The notes beneath the pieces were generated by a model, which ran no database searches, had not been told where the DNA came from, and saw nothing but the letters and a program-made list of their open reading frames with translations. The position numbers and the translations under genes are program-made. Below, one piece after another: positions 6,214-15,995 of a DNA stretch of 64,000 nucleotides (its first letter is position 1; each line of letters starts with the position of its first letter). Origin of the DNA: Blastocatellia bacterium (GTDB taxonomy: Bacteria; Acidobacteriota; Blastocatellia; RBC074); assembly GCA_035331565.1 (NCBI GenBank), contig DAOLKO010000004.1:239802-303801 (forward strand), in the 5' to 3' direction.

Positions 6214-7113
6214 ATGGCTGCTGAATACGACAATCTGCTGAAATACCTAGCTGAAAACCACGCCGAGGCGTTGGCTTCATGGCTGCTTGGCAGGCCGGTC
6301 AAAAATCGCGTGCGATTGTTGAAAACCGAACTGTCGCTGCAGCCGATCCGCTCGGACTTTTTGGCACAGTACGAAGTGGACGATGAAATCCTGCACGCCG
6401 AATTCGAGACCGATCCGGGCAATAGCGAACCGCCGCTGCCGCTGCGAATGATTGATTACTTCGTGCGCACCTACCGCCGCGAACGCAAGCCCGTGCGGCA
6501 AGTCGTCATAGTCCTGTCCGAAACCGGCGCGCCCATCCCGGACGAGTTTCGCGTCGGCGATACCTGCCATCGTTACCGCGTTATCAAAATGTGCGAACAA
6601 GATCCCGCACCACTCTTGGCCGATCCGGGTCTTGCGCCGCTGGCCGTACTGGCACAATCCGATCAGCCCGAACAACTGGTGCGACAAGTCGCCGAAGTGG
6701 TGCAGAATATTCCTGAACCCGGATTGCGCAGCGATTCCACCGCAGCGGCATTCATTCTGGGCGGATTGCGCTTCGACAAAACGCTGTTACGAAGCTTGTT
6801 TAAGGAGGAGATCATGAAACATTCGTCAACTTATCTGGACCTTGTGGAAAGAAGCGAACAACGCGGCGAACAACGCGGCGAACAACGCGGCGTTGTGCTT
6901 GGCGCGCTGAGCGTGTTGAAAGAATTGCTCAAACATCATTTCGGCCAATTGCCTGAAGTGATCGAAGAAAAGCTCGCCAATCTGGACGCGCCGACACTGA
7001 CGCAATTGGGTGTGGCACAGTCCGGTCTCACCTCGCTAGATGAAGTATCCGCCTGGATCGAGCAACACAGACCGCATTCCCATAACGGCACAGTTCAAAA
7101 CGGCGCGGCTTAA
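6214..7113 (+). CDS. Rpn (YhgA-like) family PD-(D/E)XK recombination-promoting nuclease/putative transposase, with DUF4351-like C-terminus
   Basis: N-terminal YDNLLKYL...ALASWLLG resembles the Rpn/Transposase_31 N-terminus. The C-terminal helical region has an EQRGEQRGEQRG repeat, as seen in DUF4351 tails. Confidence 0.45.
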   Translation: MAAEYDNLLKYLAENHAEALASWLLGRPVKNRVRLLKTELSLQPIRSDFLAQYEVDDEILHAEFETDPGNSEPPLPLRMIDYFVRTYRRERKPVRQVVIVLSETGAPIPDEFRVGDTCHRYRVIKMCEQDPAPLLADPGLAPLAVLAQSDQPEQLVRQVAEVVQNIPEPGLRSDSTAAAFILGGLRFDKTLLRSLFKEEIMKHSSTYLDLVERSEQRGEQRGEQRGVVLGALSVLKELLKHHFGQLPEVIEEKLANLDAPTLTQLGVAQSGLTSLDEVSAWIEQHRPHSHNGTVQNGAA

Positions 7114-7150
7114 AACGCGTCCGAATTCATTCAAGGAGACATTCATACTT

Positions 7151-9541
7151 ATGCAGATCAAAAAAGCAGCGGTGTTGGGCGCAGGAGTGATGGGCGCACA
7201 AATTGCCGCACACCTGGCCAACGCCGGCATCCCCTGTTTGCTGCTCGACATTGCGCCGAAAGAACTGACGCCCGAAGAAGCAGCCAAAGGCTTGACGCTC
7301 GACGCGCGCGCCGTGCGCAACCGCATCGCCCAAGCCGGTTTCGACGCCGCGCAAAAAGCCAAACCGGCAGCCTTCTTTGTCGGCGATGCCGCCAAGCTCG
7401 TCACGGTCGGCAACTTTGAAGACGATTTGCCGAAGCTCAAAGATTGCGACTGGATCATCGAAGCCATCGTCGAAAAGCTCGACATCAAACGCTCGCTCTA
7501 TGAACGCATCGAACCGCACCTGAAACCCGAAGCGATCATCACCTCGAACACTTCCGGCATTCCGCTCGCGAGCCTTGCCGAAGGCCGTTCGGACAACTTC
7601 CGCCGGTGTTTTCTGGGCACGCACTTTTTCAACCCGCCGCGTTATCTGCACTTGATGGAAATCATCACGCAGCCGGAAACCGACGCCGAAGTCACGAAGT
7701 TCATCGCCGATTTCACCGACCGTCAATTGGGCAAAGGCGTCGTTTACGCCAAAGACACGCCAGGTTTTGTCGCCAACCGTATCGGCAATTTTTCGATGCT
7801 CAATGCGTTTAACGTCATGGGCGAACTCGGCCTGAGCTTTGAAGAAGTGGACGCGCTGACCGGAACCGTTATCGGCCACGCCAAGAGCGCCAGTTTCCGC
7901 ACGTTGGATGTCGTAGGACTCGACACCGCCTACAACGTGGCCAAGAACCTTTACGCCGCGCTGCCCAACGACGAAAAGCGCGAATCTTTCAAAGTACCGG
8001 CGTTTATGGAAGCGATGGTCGAACGCCGTCTGCTCGGCGATAAGACCGGCGGCGGCTTTTACAAGAAAGTCGGCAAAGACATCGTCACGCTCGACACCAC
8101 GACCTTTGAATATCGCCCGCAGCAGAAAGCACAATTCGCTTCGCTGGGCGCAGCCAAACAAATCGAAAGCCTGCCCGAACGGCTGCGCTCGCTGGTTTAT
8201 GCGCAGGACAAAGCAGGCGAATTCCTCTGGCGCACGATGTCCGAAGCCGGGAGCTACGCCGCCAACCGCATCCCTGAAATCGCCGACAACATTGTCGAAA
8301 TTGACAACGCGATGAAATGGGGCTTCGCGCACGAAATGGGGCCGTTTGAAAAATGGGACGCCATCGGCGTGGAAAAATCCGTCGCACGTTTGAAAGAAGA
8401 AGGCCGCCCCATTCCCACAAACGTCGAAAAGATGCTCAGCACGGGAGCCAAAAGCTTTTACAAAACCGAAAATGGCACGCGCTATTACTTTGATTTTGCC
8501 GGCGGCGAATACAAACCTGTTCCCATTCCGGCGGGCATCACGATCCTGAAATCGCTGAAAGACCAAAGCAAAATCATCAAGAAAAACGCTGGAGCAAGCT
8601 TGATTGACCTGGGTGACGGCGTGGCCTGCGTCGAATTCCATTCCAAGATGAACGCTCTGGGCAGCGATCAACTGGGAATGATTCAGTGGGCGATCAAGGA
8701 AGTCGAAAAGAATCACGTCGGTCTGGTCATCGGCAATCAGGGCGAGAATTTTTCGGCGGGCGCAAACATCATGATGATGCTGATGGCCGCGCAGGAAGGC
8801 GAATGGGACGAAATCAACCTGGGCGTTCGCCAATTCCAAAACACGACAATGAGTTTGCGGTATTCAGCCAAACCGGTCGTCGTTGCGCCGCATCACCTGA
8901 CGCTAGGCGGCGGCTGCGAAATGGTTTTGCACTCCGACCGCGCTGTAGCTGCGGCGGAAACCTACATCGGCTTGGTTGAAGTCGGCGTTGGCTTGCTGCC
9001 GGGCGGCGGCGGCACAAAGGAAATGGCCGTTCGCGCTGCGGAAGCCGCTGAAGCCGCGCCGGGCGTGGATCATTTTGAAGTGCTGAAAAGCAATTTTGAA
9101 TTGACCGCGATGGGCAAGGTCGCCACTTCCGCTGTTGAAGCGCGCAAATGGGGATTGCTGCGCAAGGCCGACCGCGTGGCAATGAACGACAAACGTGTCA
9201 TCGAAGATGCCAAACAAACCGTGCTGACGCTGGTCGCCGAAGGCTACACGCCACCGCAACCGCGCCAGGATGTCTTGGTGTTGGGCGAAGCGGCGCTGAG
9301 CAAATTCAAACTGGGAATGCACATGATGCAACGCGGCGGGTACATCTCCGCGCACGACGCCTTGATCGGCTTGAAAATCGCGACAGTCATCAGCGGCGGT
9401 AATCTCTCTCGCCCAACACGCGTCAGTGAACAATACCTGCTCGATCTGGAACGCGAAGCCTTTGTCAGCCTGTGCGGAACCAGAGCAACGCAGGAACGCT
9501 TGGCGCACATGTTGAAGACGGGCAAACCGCTGAGGAATTAG
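7151..9541 (+). CDS. fadN: bifunctional 3-hydroxyacyl-CoA dehydrogenase / enoyl-CoA hydratase (FadN/FadB-like; dehydrogenase domain N-terminal)
   Basis: Start MQIKKAAVLGAGVMGAQIAAHLA (Rossmann GxGxxG) is preceded by a GGAG RBS. The 3HCDH domain is followed by a crotonase-fold C-terminal half; about 796 aa. Confidence 0.85.
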   Translation: MQIKKAAVLGAGVMGAQIAAHLANAGIPCLLLDIAPKELTPEEAAKGLTLDARAVRNRIAQAGFDAAQKAKPAAFFVGDAAKLVTVGNFEDDLPKLKDCDWIIEAIVEKLDIKRSLYERIEPHLKPEAIITSNTSGIPLASLAEGRSDNFRRCFLGTHFFNPPRYLHLMEIITQPETDAEVTKFIADFTDRQLGKGVVYAKDTPGFVANRIGNFSMLNAFNVMGELGLSFEEVDALTGTVIGHAKSASFRTLDVVGLDTAYNVAKNLYAALPNDEKRESFKVPAFMEAMVERRLLGDKTGGGFYKKVGKDIVTLDTTTFEYRPQQKAQFASLGAAKQIESLPERLRSLVYAQDKAGEFLWRTMSEAGSYAANRIPEIADNIVEIDNAMKWGFAHEMGPFEKWDAIGVEKSVARLKEEGRPIPTNVEKMLSTGAKSFYKTENGTRYYFDFAGGEYKPVPIPAGITILKSLKDQSKIIKKNAGASLIDLGDGVACVEFHSKMNALGSDQLGMIQWAIKEVEKNHVGLVIGNQGENFSAGANIMMMLMAAQEGEWDEINLGVRQFQNTTMSLRYSAKPVVVAPHHLTLGGGCEMVLHSDRAVAAAETYIGLVEVGVGLLPGGGGTKEMAVRAAEAAEAAPGVDHFEVLKSNFELTAMGKVATSAVEARKWGLLRKADRVAMNDKRVIEDAKQTVLTLVAEGYTPPQPRQDVLVLGEAALSKFKLGMHMMQRGGYISAHDALIGLKIATVISGGNLSRPTRVSEQYLLDLEREAFVSLCGTRATQERLAHMLKTGKPLRN

Positions 9542-9551
9542 TTAGGTCACG

Positions 9552-10328
9552 ATGAACGATCACCTAAAATCCAACGTTTACGAGCGATGCGTCGCAGCTT
9601 GGGCGATTGAGGAATTTGATTTCATCGATATCACGGTCACTGCGAATGCGAAGATTCGCGGCCAAATCAGTGGTAGATATCGCCAAGTCGATGTCCTGTT
9701 GGAAGACAGAACCAAAGGCAACCCAAAAGCCCGCGTAATTGTGGAAGCCAAGCTACATGGTCGTCCTATAGATATCGAGGTTGTAGAAGCTACGGAAGCC
9801 AAGCTTCGTGATGTGAATGCCGCCCATGCGGTAATCGTGTCATCAGGTGGTTTCACCAAATCAGCAATTCGCCGTAGCGAAGAGTTCATTGAGTTGACGC
9901 TATTGGGTTACGATCAACTGGTTAACGAATACTCGGATGCGTTCGATAACTGTCTTGCTGATAGTAACTGCGACTTAGAACTTTTATGGTCTGTCGAAAA
10001 GATAGATGGAGCCGGTCCCGGCTGGCTTATGTACAAATACGGCAAGTGCCTCCGCTGCCACACGTTTCACATCCTTTGTCGTGACTGCGATAGCGAATTC
10101 CCAGTTCCAGATGGCCACACTGTGAGGTGTGGATGTGACGACCGAGAATGGGGGGCAATTCCAGAATCAGAAGCGTCAGGCCACACGGGCACTCCAGAGT
10201 CGACATGGCTAATGCTGAGGCTTAATGATGAATTCTACGGATTGCAAAGAAAACCCATTAGCAAGGTCACTTCTCAGATTAACCGGCACGAGAACCACGG
10301 AGGTTGTAATGGTAACGGCGCAAGCTGA
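9552..10328 (+). CDS. Mrr-cat-like restriction endonuclease-fold protein with C-terminal Cys-rich zinc-finger region
   Basis: PD-(D/E)XK-like motif (QVDVLLED...ARVIVEAK). C-terminal CLRCH...CRDCD...CGCD cysteine cluster. Local GC is about 48%, against about 60% in the flanks. Confidence 0.5.
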   Translation: MNDHLKSNVYERCVAAWAIEEFDFIDITVTANAKIRGQISGRYRQVDVLLEDRTKGNPKARVIVEAKLHGRPIDIEVVEATEAKLRDVNAAHAVIVSSGGFTKSAIRRSEEFIELTLLGYDQLVNEYSDAFDNCLADSNCDLELLWSVEKIDGAGPGWLMYKYGKCLRCHTFHILCRDCDSEFPVPDGHTVRCGCDDREWGAIPESEASGHTGTPESTWLMLRLNDEFYGLQRKPISKVTSQINRHENHGGCNGNGAS

Positions 10329-10914
10329 AGCACTTGAACCGAAAGCTTATAAATTGACCGTCGAGGAGTATTCCCGGATGGCGAAAATAGGCATTTTCGA
10401 CGGCAAGCGCGTGGAATTGATCGAAGGGGAGGTGATCGAGATGAGCGCGATGGGCAGACCGCACGTGATTGCGTTGAATAAAACGGCGGATTTGCTGAAG
10501 CGGATTTTCGCCGACGGCTGGTTCGTGCAGACGCAAGCGCCCTTGCGATTCGGCAAACGTTCGGAGCCGGAACCCGACATCGCCGTCATCAAAGGCAAAA
10601 TGGAAGATTACCCAACCGATCACCCAACCACTGCGGACTTAATTATCGAGGTGTCGGACCAAACCCTGAATTACGACCGCAAACGAAAAGCGAGCTTGTA
10701 CGCAAAGGCCGGGATCCAAGATTACTGGGTACTCAATCTCAAAAAGCATCAACTCGAAATTTTTCGCCGCCCCGTTCCCGACGCCGAAGCCCGGCACGGT
10801 TTCAGCTATGAGGATCAACAGGTGGTGAAAGAGAGCGAATCCGTCTCGCCGCTCATCAAACCCGATGCGGCAATTGCCGTCGCCGACTTATTGCCGCCGA
10901 CAAATTACAGATAG
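10309..10914 (+). CDS. Uma2 family (DUF820) PD-(D/E)XK endonuclease
   Basis: YTVEEY / ELIEGE / EPDIAV / DYxxK signature segments typical of Uma2/DUF820. Start is set at the internal Met (MVTAQAEALEPKAY). Confidence 0.65.
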   Translation: MVTAQAEALEPKAYKLTVEEYSRMAKIGIFDGKRVELIEGEVIEMSAMGRPHVIALNKTADLLKRIFADGWFVQTQAPLRFGKRSEPEPDIAVIKGKMEDYPTDHPTTADLIIEVSDQTLNYDRKRKASLYAKAGIQDYWVLNLKKHQLEIFRRPVPDAEARHGFSYEDQQVVKESESVSPLIKPDAAIAVADLLPPTNYR

Positions 10915-10922
10915 GGGTAAGT

Positions 10923-11528
10923 ATGGGAACGACTGTGTCGAAAACGCTGAAAACGGTTGTGATGGGACCGACGCCTCATCGCTGGACGCGCGATGAGTAT
11001 TACAAGATCGGCGAGCTTGGCTTTTTCGACGGCAAGCGCGTCGAATTGATCGAGGGGGAGGTGCTTGAAATGAGTCCTGTTTACAGCCCGCACGTCACGT
11101 CGGTTGTCGTCACGGCGGACATCTTTCGACTGGCGTTCGGCAAAGGCTGGGTTATTCGGGAAGAAAAGCCGATTAGCTTGGGGGCCAGTTCAGACCCGGA
11201 ACCTGACATTGCCGTCGTGGCCGGCAAAGCGCGCGATTACAAAGACGCTCATCCGACAACTGCGGCACTGGTGGTCGAGGTTTCCGATTCATCCTTGGCT
11301 TACGACAGAAATGAAAAAGCCGGCCTGTATGCCAAATCAGGCATCAAGGATTACTGGATCATCAACTTGCCGGATCGGCAGGTTGAAGTTTATCGCCGCC
11401 CGATTGCGGATAACGCGGCGGAGTTTGGATTCAGTTATGCCAACAAAATGATTTTCAAAGAGGGCAAGTCCGTCGCGCCGCTGGCCAAACCCAAAACCAA
11501 AATCGCCGTGGCGGAGTTATTGCCATAA
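10923..11528 (+). CDS. Uma2 family (DUF820) PD-(D/E)XK endonuclease (tandem paralogue)
   Basis: Paralogous to the preceding gene ([11 protein letters not shown]...VELIEGEV...EPDIAVV...[16 protein letters not shown]). Confidence 0.65.
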
Positions 11529-11550
11529 TTTATTTTCAAGGAGAAACACA

Positions 11551-12747
<1,197 letters not shown>

Positions 12748-12754
12748 ACAACTA

Positions 12755-12850
12755 TCCACGAAGTCACACGAAGATTCACGAAGGAATTTGCAAAACTGGC
12801 TCTTCAAGTTTCCTGAAAAACCTTCGTGCCGCTTTGTGTAACTTCGTGGA
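12755..12850. repeat. MITE-like palindromic intergenic element, copy A (CACGAAG-motif family)
   Basis: Inverted arms TCCACGAAGTCACACGAAGATTCACGAAGG ... CCTTCGTGCCGCTTTGTGTAACTTCGTGGA sit in the fadA-ACAD spacer. Related copies lie at 25488-25610 and 55815-55952. Confidence 0.6.
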
Positions 12851-12872
12851 TGAATTTTATAGGAGAGTAACC

Positions 12873-14657
12873 ATGGCAGCAGCACTCGGAAAAGAAGTCA
12901 TCAAAGGCGGCGCGTTTCTGCTTCAGGAAACGTTGCCCATCAGCGTGTATTCCCCGGAAGATTTCAACGACGAACAGAAATTGATCGGGCAAACCACAAC
13001 CGAATTTTTCGACAAGGAAATCATTCCCAACAGCGACAAGATCGAAAGCAAGGATTACGAAATCCAGCGCGAACTCATCAAAAAAGGCGCGGACCTCGGC
13101 TTGATTAATGCCAGCATTCCCGAAGAGTACGAAGGCCTCGAACTCGATCACGTCTCGAACATGCTCATCGCCGAAAACATGTCCGGGCAGGCGTCGTTTT
13201 CCACTGGTTTCGGTGCGACCAGCAGCATCGGCCTCTTGCCGATTGTGTTGTTCGGCACGCACGAACAAAAGAAAAAGTATTTGCCGAAGATCGGCTCCGG
13301 CGAATGGATCGGCGCGTATTGCCTGAGCGAATCCGGTTCCGGTTCGGACGCGCTGGCGGCCAAATCCACTGCGCGTTTGAGCGAAGACGGTCAGCACTGG
13401 ATTCTGAACGGCGAAAAAATGTGGATCACCAATGGCGGCTTCGGCGATGTCTTCACGGTTTTTGCCAAAGTGGACGGCCAGCATTTCACGGGCTTCATTG
13501 TCGAACGCAACGATGCCGGCCTCAGCAACGGCAACGAAGAACACAAGCTCGGCCAGCGCGGCTCTTCGACTACGCCGATTCTGATGCAGGATTGCAAAAT
13601 CCCTAAAGATCGTTTGCTTGGCGAAATCGGCAAAGGCCATTTGATCGCCTTCAACGTGCTGAATTTTGGCCGCATCAAAATGGGCGCAGGAGCCATCGGC
13701 GGCGGCAAGCGCGTGTTGTCGCAAGCCGCGAAGTATGCCGCGCAACGCCATCAGTTCGGACGTTCAATCGCCACGTTCGGCGCGATCAAATATAAGCTGG
13801 CAGAAATGCTGGCGCGGTTGTATGCGGGCGAATCCGCCGTTTATCGCACCGCCGGCATGATCGAAACCAAGGAAGAAACGATTGATAAAAAGAATCCGGC
13901 AGAATTGATGAAAGCCATTGAGGAATACGCCATCGAGTGCGCCATCATCAAAGTCGCCGGCACCGAAACGCTGTTTTATTGCGCTGATGAAAACGTGCAG
14001 ATTCACGGCGGCAACGGCTTTACCGAAGATTACCCGGCTGAAGGCGTGTATCGCGATTGCCGCGTCAACCGCATTTACGAAGGCACGAACGAAATCAACC
14101 GCCTGTTGATTCCCGGCCAACTCATCAAACGCGCCATGAAAGGCGGCTTGCCGCTGTTCCAGGCCGCGATGAAGCTGCAAGAAGAATTGCTGGCCGGGCC
14201 GTCGTTCGATATGGACGAAGACGATTCGCCGCTGGCAAACGAACGCAAACTGGCCGCCAACGCCAAAAAAATCGCCCTGATGCTGATCGGTTCCGCCGCG
14301 CAGAAATTCCAGGCCGCGCTGACCGAACAGCAAATGATTTTGAGCTGGGCGGCAGATGTCATTATCGAAGCTTTCCAGATTGACAGCGCCATTGGCCGCA
14401 CCATCAAGCTGATTGACCGCGACGGCGCGGACAAACACAGCTACGCGATTGATGCGACCAGGCTCTACACGCACGACGCCATCCTCCGCATCGAAGTCGC
14501 CGCGAAAAACGCGCTGGCCGCGATTGCCGAAGGCGACGAACTGCGTGTGATGCTGGTGGCGTTGCGCCGCCTGACCAAACAAGACCCCATCAACACCGCT
14601 GCCATCCGCGAACGACTGGCCGACAAAGTCGTCGAAGCGGGCGGCTATATTTTCTAG
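12873..14657 (+). CDS. fadE: acyl-CoA dehydrogenase, large (about 594 aa) FadE/AcdA type with ACAD C-terminal domain
   Basis: ACAD motifs (YCLSESGSGSDA, ITNGG, GGNGFTEDYPAEGVYRDCRVNRIYEGTNEI). AGGAGAG RBS 6 nt upstream of the ATG at 12873. Confidence 0.85.
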   Translation: MAAALGKEVIKGGAFLLQETLPISVYSPEDFNDEQKLIGQTTTEFFDKEIIPNSDKIESKDYEIQRELIKKGADLGLINASIPEEYEGLELDHVSNMLIAENMSGQASFSTGFGATSSIGLLPIVLFGTHEQKKKYLPKIGSGEWIGAYCLSESGSGSDALAAKSTARLSEDGQHWILNGEKMWITNGGFGDVFTVFAKVDGQHFTGFIVERNDAGLSNGNEEHKLGQRGSSTTPILMQDCKIPKDRLLGEIGKGHLIAFNVLNFGRIKMGAGAIGGGKRVLSQAAKYAAQRHQFGRSIATFGAIKYKLAEMLARLYAGESAVYRTAGMIETKEETIDKKNPAELMKAIEEYAIECAIIKVAGTETLFYCADENVQIHGGNGFTEDYPAEGVYRDCRVNRIYEGTNEINRLLIPGQLIKRAMKGGLPLFQAAMKLQEELLAGPSFDMDEDDSPLANERKLAANAKKIALMLIGSAAQKFQAALTEQQMILSWAADVIIEAFQIDSAIGRTIKLIDRDGADKHSYAIDATRLYTHDAILRIEVAAKNALAAIAEGDELRVMLVALRRLTKQDPINTAAIRERLADKVVEAGGYIF

Positions 14658-14801: not shown

Positions 14802-15179
14802 ATGAAGATGTCAACGCAAACAATGGAACTGACGGTTGAAAACATTCTCTCGCTGATTGAAAAACTTTCCCTGCCCGACAAACTCAGATTGCGTAGTGCG
14901 CTCAATCAAACCGTGAAAGCGCCTTCCGCCGTTAAAGCGCCACTCGACAAGCGAGTGCCGTGCGAGCCAATGCCGGACAGAGCGCGCGAAAGGCAATGGG
15001 TGAAAGATCATAAGCACGAATATGCTGGTCAGTGGGTGGCGCTGGATGGCGACCAGCTTATTGCTGCCAGTTTCACTCAGCAGGAAGTCTGGGACACAAT
15101 CAATGCCGATAGTCCAAATCCGCCGCTGGTTTTGCGCGTGGCGTCTCCCGATGATCTGCCTTATGTCGGCATTCTTTGA
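14802..15179 (+). CDS. DUF5678-domain protein (antitoxin-like small protein)
   Basis: C-terminal YAGQWVALDGDQLIAAS matches the DUF5678 core. N-terminal helical segment TVENILSLIEKLSLPDKLRL. GGAGG RBS upstream. The stop overlaps the start of the next gene. Confidence 0.45.
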   Translation: MKMSTQTMELTVENILSLIEKLSLPDKLRLRSALNQTVKAPSAVKAPLDKRVPCEPMPDRARERQWVKDHKHEYAGQWVALDGDQLIAASFTQQEVWDTINADSPNPPLVLRVASPDDLPYVGIL

Positions 15180-15592
15180 AGTTTATGAAACAACTCAATT
15201 TCGATCAGGAATACGCTTACCCGGATGATGAGGAAGGTATCTCCATCGCAGTAAAGCTGGCTTATGCCGGACGTCGCTTTGAGGTGTTAGCCAAAGTAGA
15301 CCCAGGCGCTGCCGTCTGTCTTTTCAGTCGTGAAGTTGGATTGAAACTCGGCATTCCGATTGAGCAAGGAGAGCTGATCCGCCTTGGCACGCTGGGCGGT
15401 TCTCTGGAAGCCTTCGGCCACGAAGTGACGCTGCAAACGGGCGACATCGCGTTTCAGAGTTTTGTCTATTTCGCCAAATATTCTGGCTTGCAACGCAATC
15501 TGCTTGGGCGGCGCGGCTGGTTGCGCAACTTGCGGTTGGGCCTGATTGATTACGACAACCTGCTTTATCTGAGCGCCTACGATTCCAATTGA
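15176..15592 (+). CDS. retropepsin-like (clan AA) aspartic protease-fold protein, non-canonical DPG active-site variant
   Basis: AKVDPGAAVCLFSREVGLKLGI follows the retropepsin hhhDTGAs...LGL pattern but has DPG instead of DTG/DSG. The ORF track begins at a TTG at 15176; the first ATG is at 15185. Confidence 0.4.
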   Translation: MKFMKQLNFDQEYAYPDDEEGISIAVKLAYAGRRFEVLAKVDPGAAVCLFSREVGLKLGIPIEQGELIRLGTLGGSLEAFGHEVTLQTGDIAFQSFVYFAKYSGLQRNLLGRRGWLRNLRLGLIDYDNLLYLSAYDSN

Positions 15593-15593
15593 G

Positions 15594-15830
15594 ATGACGA
15601 CAAATTTTCAAATCATTGATGCCTGGGTGCAGCCGGCGCAGCGCGAAGCTTTCGAGAAGCTGCCGGAAGTCACCGCCCCAAACGTGATGGCCACGATTGC
15701 CGAAGGCGACGAACTGCGCGTGATGCTGGTGGCCTTGCGCCGCCTGACCAAACAAGACCCAATCAACACCGCTGCCCTCCGCGAACGTCTGTCAGATAAA
15801 GTCGTCGAAGCGGGCGGCTATATTTTCTAA
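15594..15830 (+). pseudogene. relic of the acyl-CoA dehydrogenase C-terminal domain (mosaic fragment)
   Basis: The last about 150 nt (15683-15830) are about 90% identical to the 3' end of the resident ACAD gene (14510-14657), encoding IAEGDELRVMLVALRRLTKQDPINTAALRERLSDKVVEAGGYIF. The 5' part, AWVQPAQREAFEKLPEV, corresponds to a diverged ACAD SWAADVIIEAFQID segment and is about 96% identical to a second relic at 51720-51770. Confidence 0.55.
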
Positions 15831-15879: not shown

Positions 15880-15909
15880 CTGTTCCCGCCAACTCTTGCC
15901 AATCAACCT

Positions 15910-15971
15910 GATGTTGGGACACTTTTGGAGTGCGGTTGCTTGAAACCGCACTCCAAAAGTGTCCCAACATC
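15910..15971. terminator. 27-bp-stem palindrome between convergent genes (bidirectional terminator candidate)
   Basis: GATGTTGGGACACTTTTGGAGTGCGGTT gcttgaa AACCGCACTCCAAAAGTGTCCCAACATC, immediately 3' of the minus-strand BNR protein gene. Confidence 0.5.
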
Positions 15972-15995
15972 AGCGGCGGTACTGATTCGGCTATT

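Follow-up and report, generated by a model that had tools for sequence, protein, structure and literature searches.

Gene X and its place in the fad operon

The window analysed here, a 64,000-nucleotide stretch of DNA from a Blastocatellia bacterium, carries a β-oxidation operon into which a small gene, here called X, is inserted. The ORF coordinates place X between fadN and the Uma2/fadA genes on one strand, as the earlier note on this DNA had described. The features used below are as follows.

7151 to 9541, plus strand: fadN-type 3-hydroxyacyl-CoA dehydrogenase/enoyl-CoA hydratase, the upstream operon gene (Pfam 3HCDH_N, 3HCDH and ECH_1; 796-aa gene call)
9541 to 9551, plus strand: putative left cassette boundary, G/TTAGGTCACG (the same 10–11 nt, with at most one base changed, stand before the ATG in loci L091, L007, L009, L092 and L097)
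9552 to 10328, plus strand: gene X, 258 aa, ATG start (ORF list; identical protein called on 18 contigs)
9552 to 9926, plus strand: PD-(D/E)XK (Mrr_cat) nuclease domain of X, residues 1–125 (Mrr_cat match; catalytic candidates E11, D47, E65 and K67)
9582–9584, 9690–9692, 9744–9746 and 9750–9752, plus strand: codons of the candidate catalytic residues E11, D47, E65 and K67, respectively
9939 to 10256, plus strand: all-beta C-terminal domain of X, residues about 130–235 (invariant Cys/His, codons 9951–10136)
10280 to 10328, plus strand: non-native 3' tail of X (blastn end points, end alignments)
10309 to 10914, plus strand: Uma2a, 201 aa, PD-(D/E)XK Uma2 family (Pfam Uma2, 7.9e-33; gene calls)
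10923 to 11528, plus strand: Uma2b, 201 aa, tandem paralog of Uma2a (Pfam Uma2, 1.7e-27)
11551 to 12747, plus strand: fadA thiolase, the downstream operon gene (Pfam Thiolase_N and Thiolase_C)

The start of fadN is given at 7151 by the gene callers and at 7040 in the longest ORF. Only 10 nt separate its stop from the start of X, and fadN, X, both Uma2 genes and fadA are co-directional, with gaps of 8–22 nt along the Uma2 genes and fadA behind X. The 3' end of X overlaps Uma2a by 20 nt, and the ribosome-binding site of Uma2a, GGAGG, sits within the X tail; the ribosome-binding site of X itself is weak (AGG at −10 to −8). The GC content of X had been put at about 48% against about 60% in its flanks. 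The dip is real but smaller than claimed, with X at 49.3%, the window at 57.1% and the genes acs, fadN, fadA and acd at 54–59%. At third codon positions X has 49.8% GC versus 63–70% in the same four genes, and its overall value falls at the 2.3rd percentile among 777-nt segments.

The identical X protein occurs on 18 contigs from several samples. The six copies examined, three of them from NCBI metagenome-assembled genomes, have the same neighbours and share 99.99–100% DNA identity, a figure that is uninformative either way on within-species decay.

A nuclease domain with a Cys/His-rich partner

X consists of an N-terminal Mrr_cat nuclease domain followed by a Cys/His-rich beta domain. In a Pfam scan, residues 41–125 match Mrr_cat (PF04471) at 33.3 bits, above the gathering cutoff of 21, and the N-terminal half of the protein by itself scores 35.3 bits, which bears out the earlier suggestion of an Mrr-like nuclease with a D...E.K core. 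The alpha-beta-beta-beta-alpha-beta core fold expected of the PD-(D/E)XK superfamily is present. A lack of conservation at the active-site positions had been named in the earlier note as grounds for abandoning the nuclease assignment; these residues are instead kept across the family. Among 30 members at 45–95% identity, D47 and K67 are invariant, residue 65 is acidic (E or D) throughout and E11 is kept almost everywhere; in more distant members (24–37% identity), D65, K67 and the cysteines hardly vary. Values of dN/dS between X and its relatives, 0.07–0.15, indicate strong purifying selection on the family. X has the look of an active Mrr-type PD-(D/E)XK endonuclease, and nuclease activity would be expected of it.

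The canonical Mrr order, an Mrr_N winged-helix domain and then the catalytic domain, is not that of X, in which the catalytic domain is N-terminal. Mrr_N is absent from the whole-protein Pfam scan to E = 1, which lists Mrr_cat and three sub-threshold families. Structure comparison identifies MspJI, AspBHI, Can2, Card1, NucC and Cap4 as relatives of the nuclease fold.

The remaining 130 residues, the C-terminal domain, match no Pfam family and have no counterpart among solved or viral folds: a PDB profile search returned weak, non-significant matches only, and a viral fold library held nothing for X. Neither does NCBIfam contain a family for X, and the domain bears no resemblance to known readers of modified bases or to DNA-reading folds. 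The CxxC...CxxC...CxC cluster reported previously is conserved as C166-x2-C169, C176-x2-C179 and C193-x-C195, and seven cysteines and one histidine (C134, C166, C169, H173, C176, C179, C193 and C195) are invariant among the 30 family members. These eight conserved candidate ligands would probably fit two zinc ions; the alignment of the CxxC-x6-CxxC stretch to the bL32 zinc ribbon is non-significant (E = 0.36). A profile of the domain recovered 42 clusters among 1.84 billion representatives, and the full-length members among them are nearly all 230–270 aa long, with the same nuclease domain ahead and the same cysteines. This two-domain nuclease family is rare, and its second domain is without a described relative.

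Homologs of X and the cargo of the fadN–fadA spacer

Protein homologs at 73–95% identity are found in Mariprofundus ferrooxydans, Gallionella and several metagenome contigs, always as single genes in unrelated neighbourhoods. X is GC-poorer than its surroundings wherever the flank is long enough (five hosts), with values in other hosts of 46 versus 53, 52 versus 56, 51 versus 61 and 53.5 versus 65%. A phage collection contained no match to X and a plasmid collection only remote matches to the nuclease domain. A methyltransferase beside X is absent in nine of ten contexts; the exception is L094, a member at 50% identity that adjoins a C5 DNA methyltransferase, a neighbour that misfits a modification-dependent enzyme. 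Near the left edge of the window, 9 kb upstream of X, is a gene for a Dam-like methyltransferase; it is syntenic in relatives without X and was rejected as a partner on that ground.

A scan for FadN in 185,579 species genomes yielded 80 related fad loci, none of which holds X or a remnant of it (all tblastn hits at E > 0.8). This comparison of the operon, taken with the homologs at 73–95% identity in unrelated contexts, strongly supports the horizontal acquisition that the earlier note had proposed from composition. Just 36 nt separate fadN from fadA in the four closest relatives, whose FadN is 92–94% identical. The spacer is empty in 12 of 25 assessable Blastocatellia and filled with other cargo in 13, the kinds being Uma2 genes, PIN-domain pairs, DUF4160/DUF2442 pairs and a DUF7674 protein. 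An ortholog of Uma2a (86% identical) occupies the same slot in the sister genome L014, as do orthologs of Uma2b (61–74% identity) in L018, L025, L028, L032 and L062. In Blastocatellia, the fadN–fadA spacer has repeatedly taken in small genes for nucleases and toxins, and X is its newest, lineage-specific arrival.

Cassette boundaries and attC sites

Integron cassettes are bounded by the core site GTTRRRY and the inverse core site RYYYAAC, and the integrase crossover falls between the G and the TT of the core site, so that a cassette bears at its 5' edge the TTRRRY half of its own attC. A box of this kind, G/TTAGGTCAC, abuts the ATG of X, where TTAGGTCAC is the portion of the attC R' core site that the cassette itself supplies. 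The sequence GTTAGGTCAC followed by T or G, or a one-base variant, stands directly before the ATG in the window, L007, L009, L091, L092 and L097, and upstream of this 10–11-nt box there is no homology between these loci. At the other end, GTGACCTAAC, the R'' box, overlaps or closely follows the stop codon in L007, L009, L091, L093 (one base different) and L097. The 5' GTTAGGTCAC and 3' GTGACCTAAC boxes are reverse complements of each other, and GTTAGGT conforms to GTTRRRY as ACCTAAC does to RYYYAAC. Both boxes are found in L007, L009, L091 and L097, the 5' box in L092 and the 3' box in L093, the closest relative (94% nt), which has a 3' attC and a different 5' flank.

Folding of the 3' flanks gave long, imperfect hairpins with z-scores of −6.3, −7.5 and −6.8, and a weaker −2.8 in L093; as the outer R''/R' pairing is imposed by construction, the inner stem alone is independent evidence. 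Single-base bulges occur at matching hairpin positions in L091 and L009, and no Rfam family accounts for the hairpins. The attC calls come from our own folding and our own structure scanner, not from the validated model of IntegronFinder. The scanner demands a single hairpin and misses attCs with long branched loops, such as those of L091 and L009, which were therefore folded individually. Without a single hit in shuffled controls, it marked attCs to either side of X in L007 and another upstream of the gene in L092. Direct folding supplied a further one for L007, three for L097 and, in L091, one ahead of X. L007 (at about 7013–7100, 7925–7996 and 8738–8798) and L097 each hold an array of three or more attCs in the same orientation; in L097 the order is a 158-aa gene, attC, AbiTii, attC, X, attC and a 314-aa gene. 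Other array neighbours of X are likewise defence or toxin genes, and together they include AbiTii, HEPN, CcdAB and Imm70. Neither an integron integrase nor a tyrosine recombinase appears in the gene list of any X locus, most of these contigs being short, and L010, L094 and L095/L096 have no attC.

Two other interpretations of the paired boxes, as the terminal inverted repeats of a very small transposon or as a split palindromic homing site, were rejected because attC hairpins follow the boxes and neighbouring genes have attCs of their own; GTTAGGTCAC and GTGACCTAAC fit integron core sites. These features identify X as a putative integron gene cassette in six independent loci (L007, L009, L091, L092, L093 and L097). 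The Uma2 and PIN cargo of the fadN–fadA spacer was also considered as cassettes and rejected, since its junctions have no GTTRRRY boundaries, which limits the cassette reading to X.

The window copy and its route of entry

In the window, the cassette half-site is joined to G9541, the final base of the fadN TAG stop, and blastn homology to L091 and L007 opens exactly at this base. The sister genome L014 reads TAG/TTA at the same point. At the right end, homology to the foreign cassettes stops at 10279, and homology to the Uma2a cargo of L014 resumes at 10292. The last two native codons, the native stop, the R'' box and the attC are missing from the window copy; its frame runs on for 15 extra codons to a TGA at 10326–10328, within the leader and start of Uma2a. 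The structure model predicts the tail to be disordered (pLDDT < 50 from residue 238). The attC scanner found nothing near X in the window, and no direct repeats or target-site duplication flank the gene. The window copy therefore appears to be a fossil cassette outside an integron and not a mobile one.

Integron integrases can insert cassettes at genomic 5'-GWT-3' sites termed attG, and the inserted cassettes are expressed when they lie downstream of a resident promoter (Loot et al., 10.1101/2022.09.11.507474). The left junction of X, a half-site of 10–11 nt, is consistent with this route, and the argument for an integrase turns on one junction because the right junction has been deleted. In the history that we propose, a cassette that is promoterless elsewhere would have inserted at the GTT to which the fadN stop contributes its final G, by integrase-mediated recombination at a non-classical genomic site of the attG type. 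The attC and last codons of X would then have been lost, through a subsequent deletion or through the adjacent Uma2a cassette, and with the attC gone an integrase could no longer excise the gene. X would most likely be transcribed from the TetR-controlled promoter of the fad operon. Co-transcription is suggested by the geometry, by the need to transcribe fadA and by the finding of no promoter or terminator signals above chance; unless fadA has a promoter of its own, its transcription would have to pass through X and both Uma2 genes.

Entry into the spacer by homologous or illegitimate recombination, for instance after transformation with DNA from a relative that already had the gene, would make the 5' TTAGGTCAC a remnant of an earlier cassette. 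A general hot spot for small selfish genes is indicated by the 13 of 25 relatives with spacer cargo, none of it with GTTRRRY boundaries. Another cassette in the same genome, found downstream of acd, has duplicated host sequence of 164 nt on either side, which points to insertion by recombination, and the window contains neither an integrase nor an attC. Against these observations stand the exact start of foreign-cassette homology at the G of GTT, where the integrase makes its crossover, the presence of GTT at this position in the sister target L014, and the failure of any of the 80 loci to provide a relative with X in the slot. We regard such a recombination route as rather doubtful. Entry of the attG type followed by loss of the attC is the reading retained below, and the account as a whole, namely a fixed integron cassette that entered in this way, lost its attC, is co-transcribed with the fad genes and encodes a solitary defence nuclease, seems to us fairly likely.

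Relation to known systems

Like Type IV enzymes with Mrr or Mrr_cat (PF04471) domains, MspJI and AspBHI, X has a PD-(D/E)XK domain with an E...D...(E/D)xK arrangement, is solitary, with no cognate methyltransferase, and combines one nuclease domain with one other domain. It differs from them in having no Mrr_N and no SRA-like reader, in its N-terminal nuclease domain and in its Cys/His-rich beta partner, which is without a detectable relative. The linked methyltransferase by which Type II restriction-modification is recognised is found only at L094.

In six loci X resembles the cassettes of integrons and of CALIN and SALIN elements in being a promoterless ORF with TTRRRY on its 5' side and RYYYAAC and an attC hairpin on its 3' side, and in L007 and L097 it forms part of co-oriented arrays with other small genes, as in integrons and CALINs, the latter being integrase-free arrays with two or more attCs (PMC4889954). 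The window copy departs from this pattern in lacking an attC, and an integrase was seen near no copy. The definitions were built on clinical integrons, from which the hosts of X (Zetaproteobacteria, Gallionella, Acidobacteriota and metagenome contigs) are remote.

The closest parallel to the window junction is provided by attG insertions (10.1101/2022.09.11.507474) and older reports of ‘secondary sites’, in which the junction likewise falls at the G/TT of 5'-GWT-3' outside an att site; X is also sense-oriented downstream of a resident promoter, the condition for expression of attG insertions. Unlike those insertions, X is a natural and ancient-looking case in a core catabolic operon, in which the left junction alone survives and loss of the attC would have fixed the cassette. 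Loss of the attC gives rise to fused, polycistronic cassettes (PMC4670013). X would share with the fused cassettes described there the total loss of the attC, an ORF that runs into the next leader and polycistronic expression, whereas the evidence does not establish the downstream Uma2a as a cassette, and the location is outside an integron.

Phage defence encoded by integron cassettes has been described as BRiCs (10.1101/2024.07.02.601719). X resembles these, and the PADLOC candidate system PDC-S02, in being compact and cassette-borne, with a nuclease domain and defence-type neighbours. It was not found among the tested BRiCs, and the words ‘Mrr’ and ‘nuclease’ have no occurrences in the searched text of that study. 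The PDC-S02 profile matches X at E = 4.3e-08, through the Mrr_cat domain at 93 of 346 profile positions (236–328); as the match is to the nuclease domain only, X was rejected as a PDC-S02 member.

Function of X

The most likely role of X would be that of a solitary defence nuclease acting against foreign DNA in the manner of Type IV (modification-dependent) restriction enzymes, because no methyltransferase travels along with it and its neighbours in cassette arrays are defence and toxin genes. Dependence on modified DNA is suggested by the solitary state of X together with its structural similarity to MspJI and AspBHI, and the C-terminal beta domain may serve as a substrate-recognition module. 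A more far-reaching possibility, which we put forward tentatively, is that this domain is a new zinc-dependent reader of nucleic acid and that the family represents unrecognised, compact (~245 aa) single-protein restriction or defence nucleases that integrons have spread from phylum to phylum.

The main functional rival casts X as an effector of the toxin-like or abortive-infection kind, a poorly specific nuclease that its C-terminal domain keeps inactive until infection or stress sets it free. The array neighbours CcdAB, HEPN and AbiTii are toxin–antitoxin or abortive-infection genes, Can2, Card1, NucC and Cap4 are ligand-activated effectors among the related folds, and the C-terminal domain is unlike any DNA-reading fold, all of which would suit such an effector. 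However, no sensor, signal-generating partner or antitoxin appears in the contexts of X, and constitutive transcription of a toxin within an essential catabolic operon should carry a cost, whereas X is intact and identical in 18 contigs. On balance we consider an effector of this sort unlikely.

Less likely are a dead passenger, a repair nuclease and an orphan Type II enzyme. The loss of the native C-terminus, stop codon and attC and the weak ribosome-binding site would be expected if X were a functionless gene decaying in the Blastocatellia genome, but its frame is intact across all conserved residues, the replaced residues are predicted to be confined to the disordered tail and the family is under strong purifying selection, so that decay appears quite improbable. 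With structure-specific repair nucleases like NucS/EndoMS or Hjc, X has only the core nuclease fold in common (93–122 aligned residues at 16–19% identity); it has no N-terminal domain of the NucS type and no PCNA-binding motif, and its patchy, cassette-borne distribution and absence from all close relatives make a housekeeping role in DNA repair very unlikely. The least likely reading makes X an orphan Type II restriction endonuclease, its methyltransferase being encoded somewhere else in the genome. The divergent L094, which is followed by a C5 DNA methyltransferase, and the Dam-like gene upstream of X could be taken to favour it, but the other nine contexts offer no adjacent methyltransferase, the Dam-like gene is kept by relatives that lack X, and a cassette carrying the nuclease alone would be lethal to every host that it entered. 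A solitary defence nuclease is the function that we favour.

Significance

The identity of X as a cassette, its fossil state at a non-integron site in a core operon and its undescribed C-terminal domain are what this analysis adds to the earlier note. X would represent a natural footprint of cassettes leaving integrons and becoming fixed in core chromosomal operons, an escape route that has been shown only recently in the laboratory. As the window copy has no attC, it is invisible to attC-based tools, and such events may be under-counted. The C-terminal domain of the X family is a candidate for a new specificity module in defence, and the fadN–fadA spacer offers a tractable natural system in which to ask why operon-internal spacers gather cargo of this kind. 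If the tentative reading of the C-terminal domain and the proposed history are both true, the attG route would have wired a defence gene permanently into a fatty-acid-responsive operon, and immunity would be expressed along with β-oxidation.

The fadN–fadA spacer as a variable slot

Across the Blastocatellia, the content of the spacer between fadN and fadA was found to vary: 12 of 25 spacers are empty, while the 13 that are occupied contain Uma2 genes, PIN-domain two-gene pairs, DUF4160/DUF2442 pairs or DUF7674, with the cargo placed in the orientation of the operon in every case. The loci behind this observation are the related fad loci L013, L014, L016, L018–L021, L025, L027, L028, L032, L033, L036 and L062. 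The 36-nt 'empty' spacers of the related loci L011, L012, L063 and L068 contain ATTGCCAT or ATTGCAAT, followed by TTCAAAGGAG, and this sequence is similar to window positions 11508–11550, which span the last codons of Uma2b (TTATTGCCATAA) and the fadA leader. Because of this resemblance, the empty fadN–fadA sites may be what a deletion left behind of an earlier Uma2 resident, and not sites that were never occupied.

The public records of four related loci (L015, L016, L036 and L063) are titled 'Heliomicrobium' or 'Heliobacteriaceae'. Their FadN proteins are 76–94% identical to the Blastocatellia FadN of the window and their operon order is the same; the titles on these assemblies are probably a taxonomic mislabel.

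Upstream of fadN lies another gene with a patchy distribution:

6214..7113, 299-aa gene between a ferredoxin-reductase-like gene and fadN

It displays a weak Rpn-family signature (TIGR01784), far under the cutoff, and a sub-threshold match to DUF4351 (24.5 bits vs a cutoff of 25). Among relatives, the gene is carried by L011, L014, L016 and L019–L021 and is missing from others, such as L012 and L063. This looks like one more nuclease-type passenger of variable occurrence in the fad operon.

Repeats downstream of fadA

The acyl-CoA dehydrogenase gene (acd) has its 3' end duplicated, in the form of a 164-nt direct repeat of 91% identity (14493–14656 vs 15666–15829). The two copies flank an insert of ~1.17 kb containing two genes:

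14802..15179, DUF5678 gene
15176..15592, Asp_protease_2-like gene

Duplication of the acd end also explains why a terminator-like hairpin occurs twice, at 14627 and 15800. The '78-aa ORF' called by gene finders at the acd repeat is the copied acd end.

Directly past the duplicated end, at 15908–15973, is a perfect inverted repeat of 30 nt with a 6-nt loop, which may be a terminator or a recombination site; its Rfam microRNA matches, all sub-threshold, arise because the repeat is a long hairpin. A second inverted repeat, with 36-nt arms that are 81% complementary and 26 nt apart, occupies 12754–12851 in the fadA–acd intergenic region and may be an operator or an attenuator.

Homologs of the Mrr_cat nuclease gene in other contexts

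In L009, an unrelated metagenome contig, a Uma2 gene lies directly upstream of a homolog of the window's Mrr_cat nuclease gene on the same strand (6984–8738); the adjacency is common to L009 and the window, but the gene order is reversed. At L094 (229–4378), genes for a C5 DNA methyltransferase and then a GHKL-type ATPase (HATPase_c_3) come after a family member of 50% identity, all on one strand. No attC sites, the cassette recombination hairpins, are present in this interval, and the setting is island-like, unlike that of the cassette arrays.

Within the arrays, the attC sequences of the nuclease cassettes differ widely from one array to another (L097, 1515–1600 and 2332–2400; attCs of L007, L091 and L009), and in L097 the attC of the nuclease cassette is near-identical to that of the neighbouring cassette. 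The extended outer core-site boxes R'' and R' (GACCTAAC and GTTAGGTC) are constant across these differing attCs. Taken together, these sequence comparisons suggest that attCs are homogenised or exchanged inside arrays.
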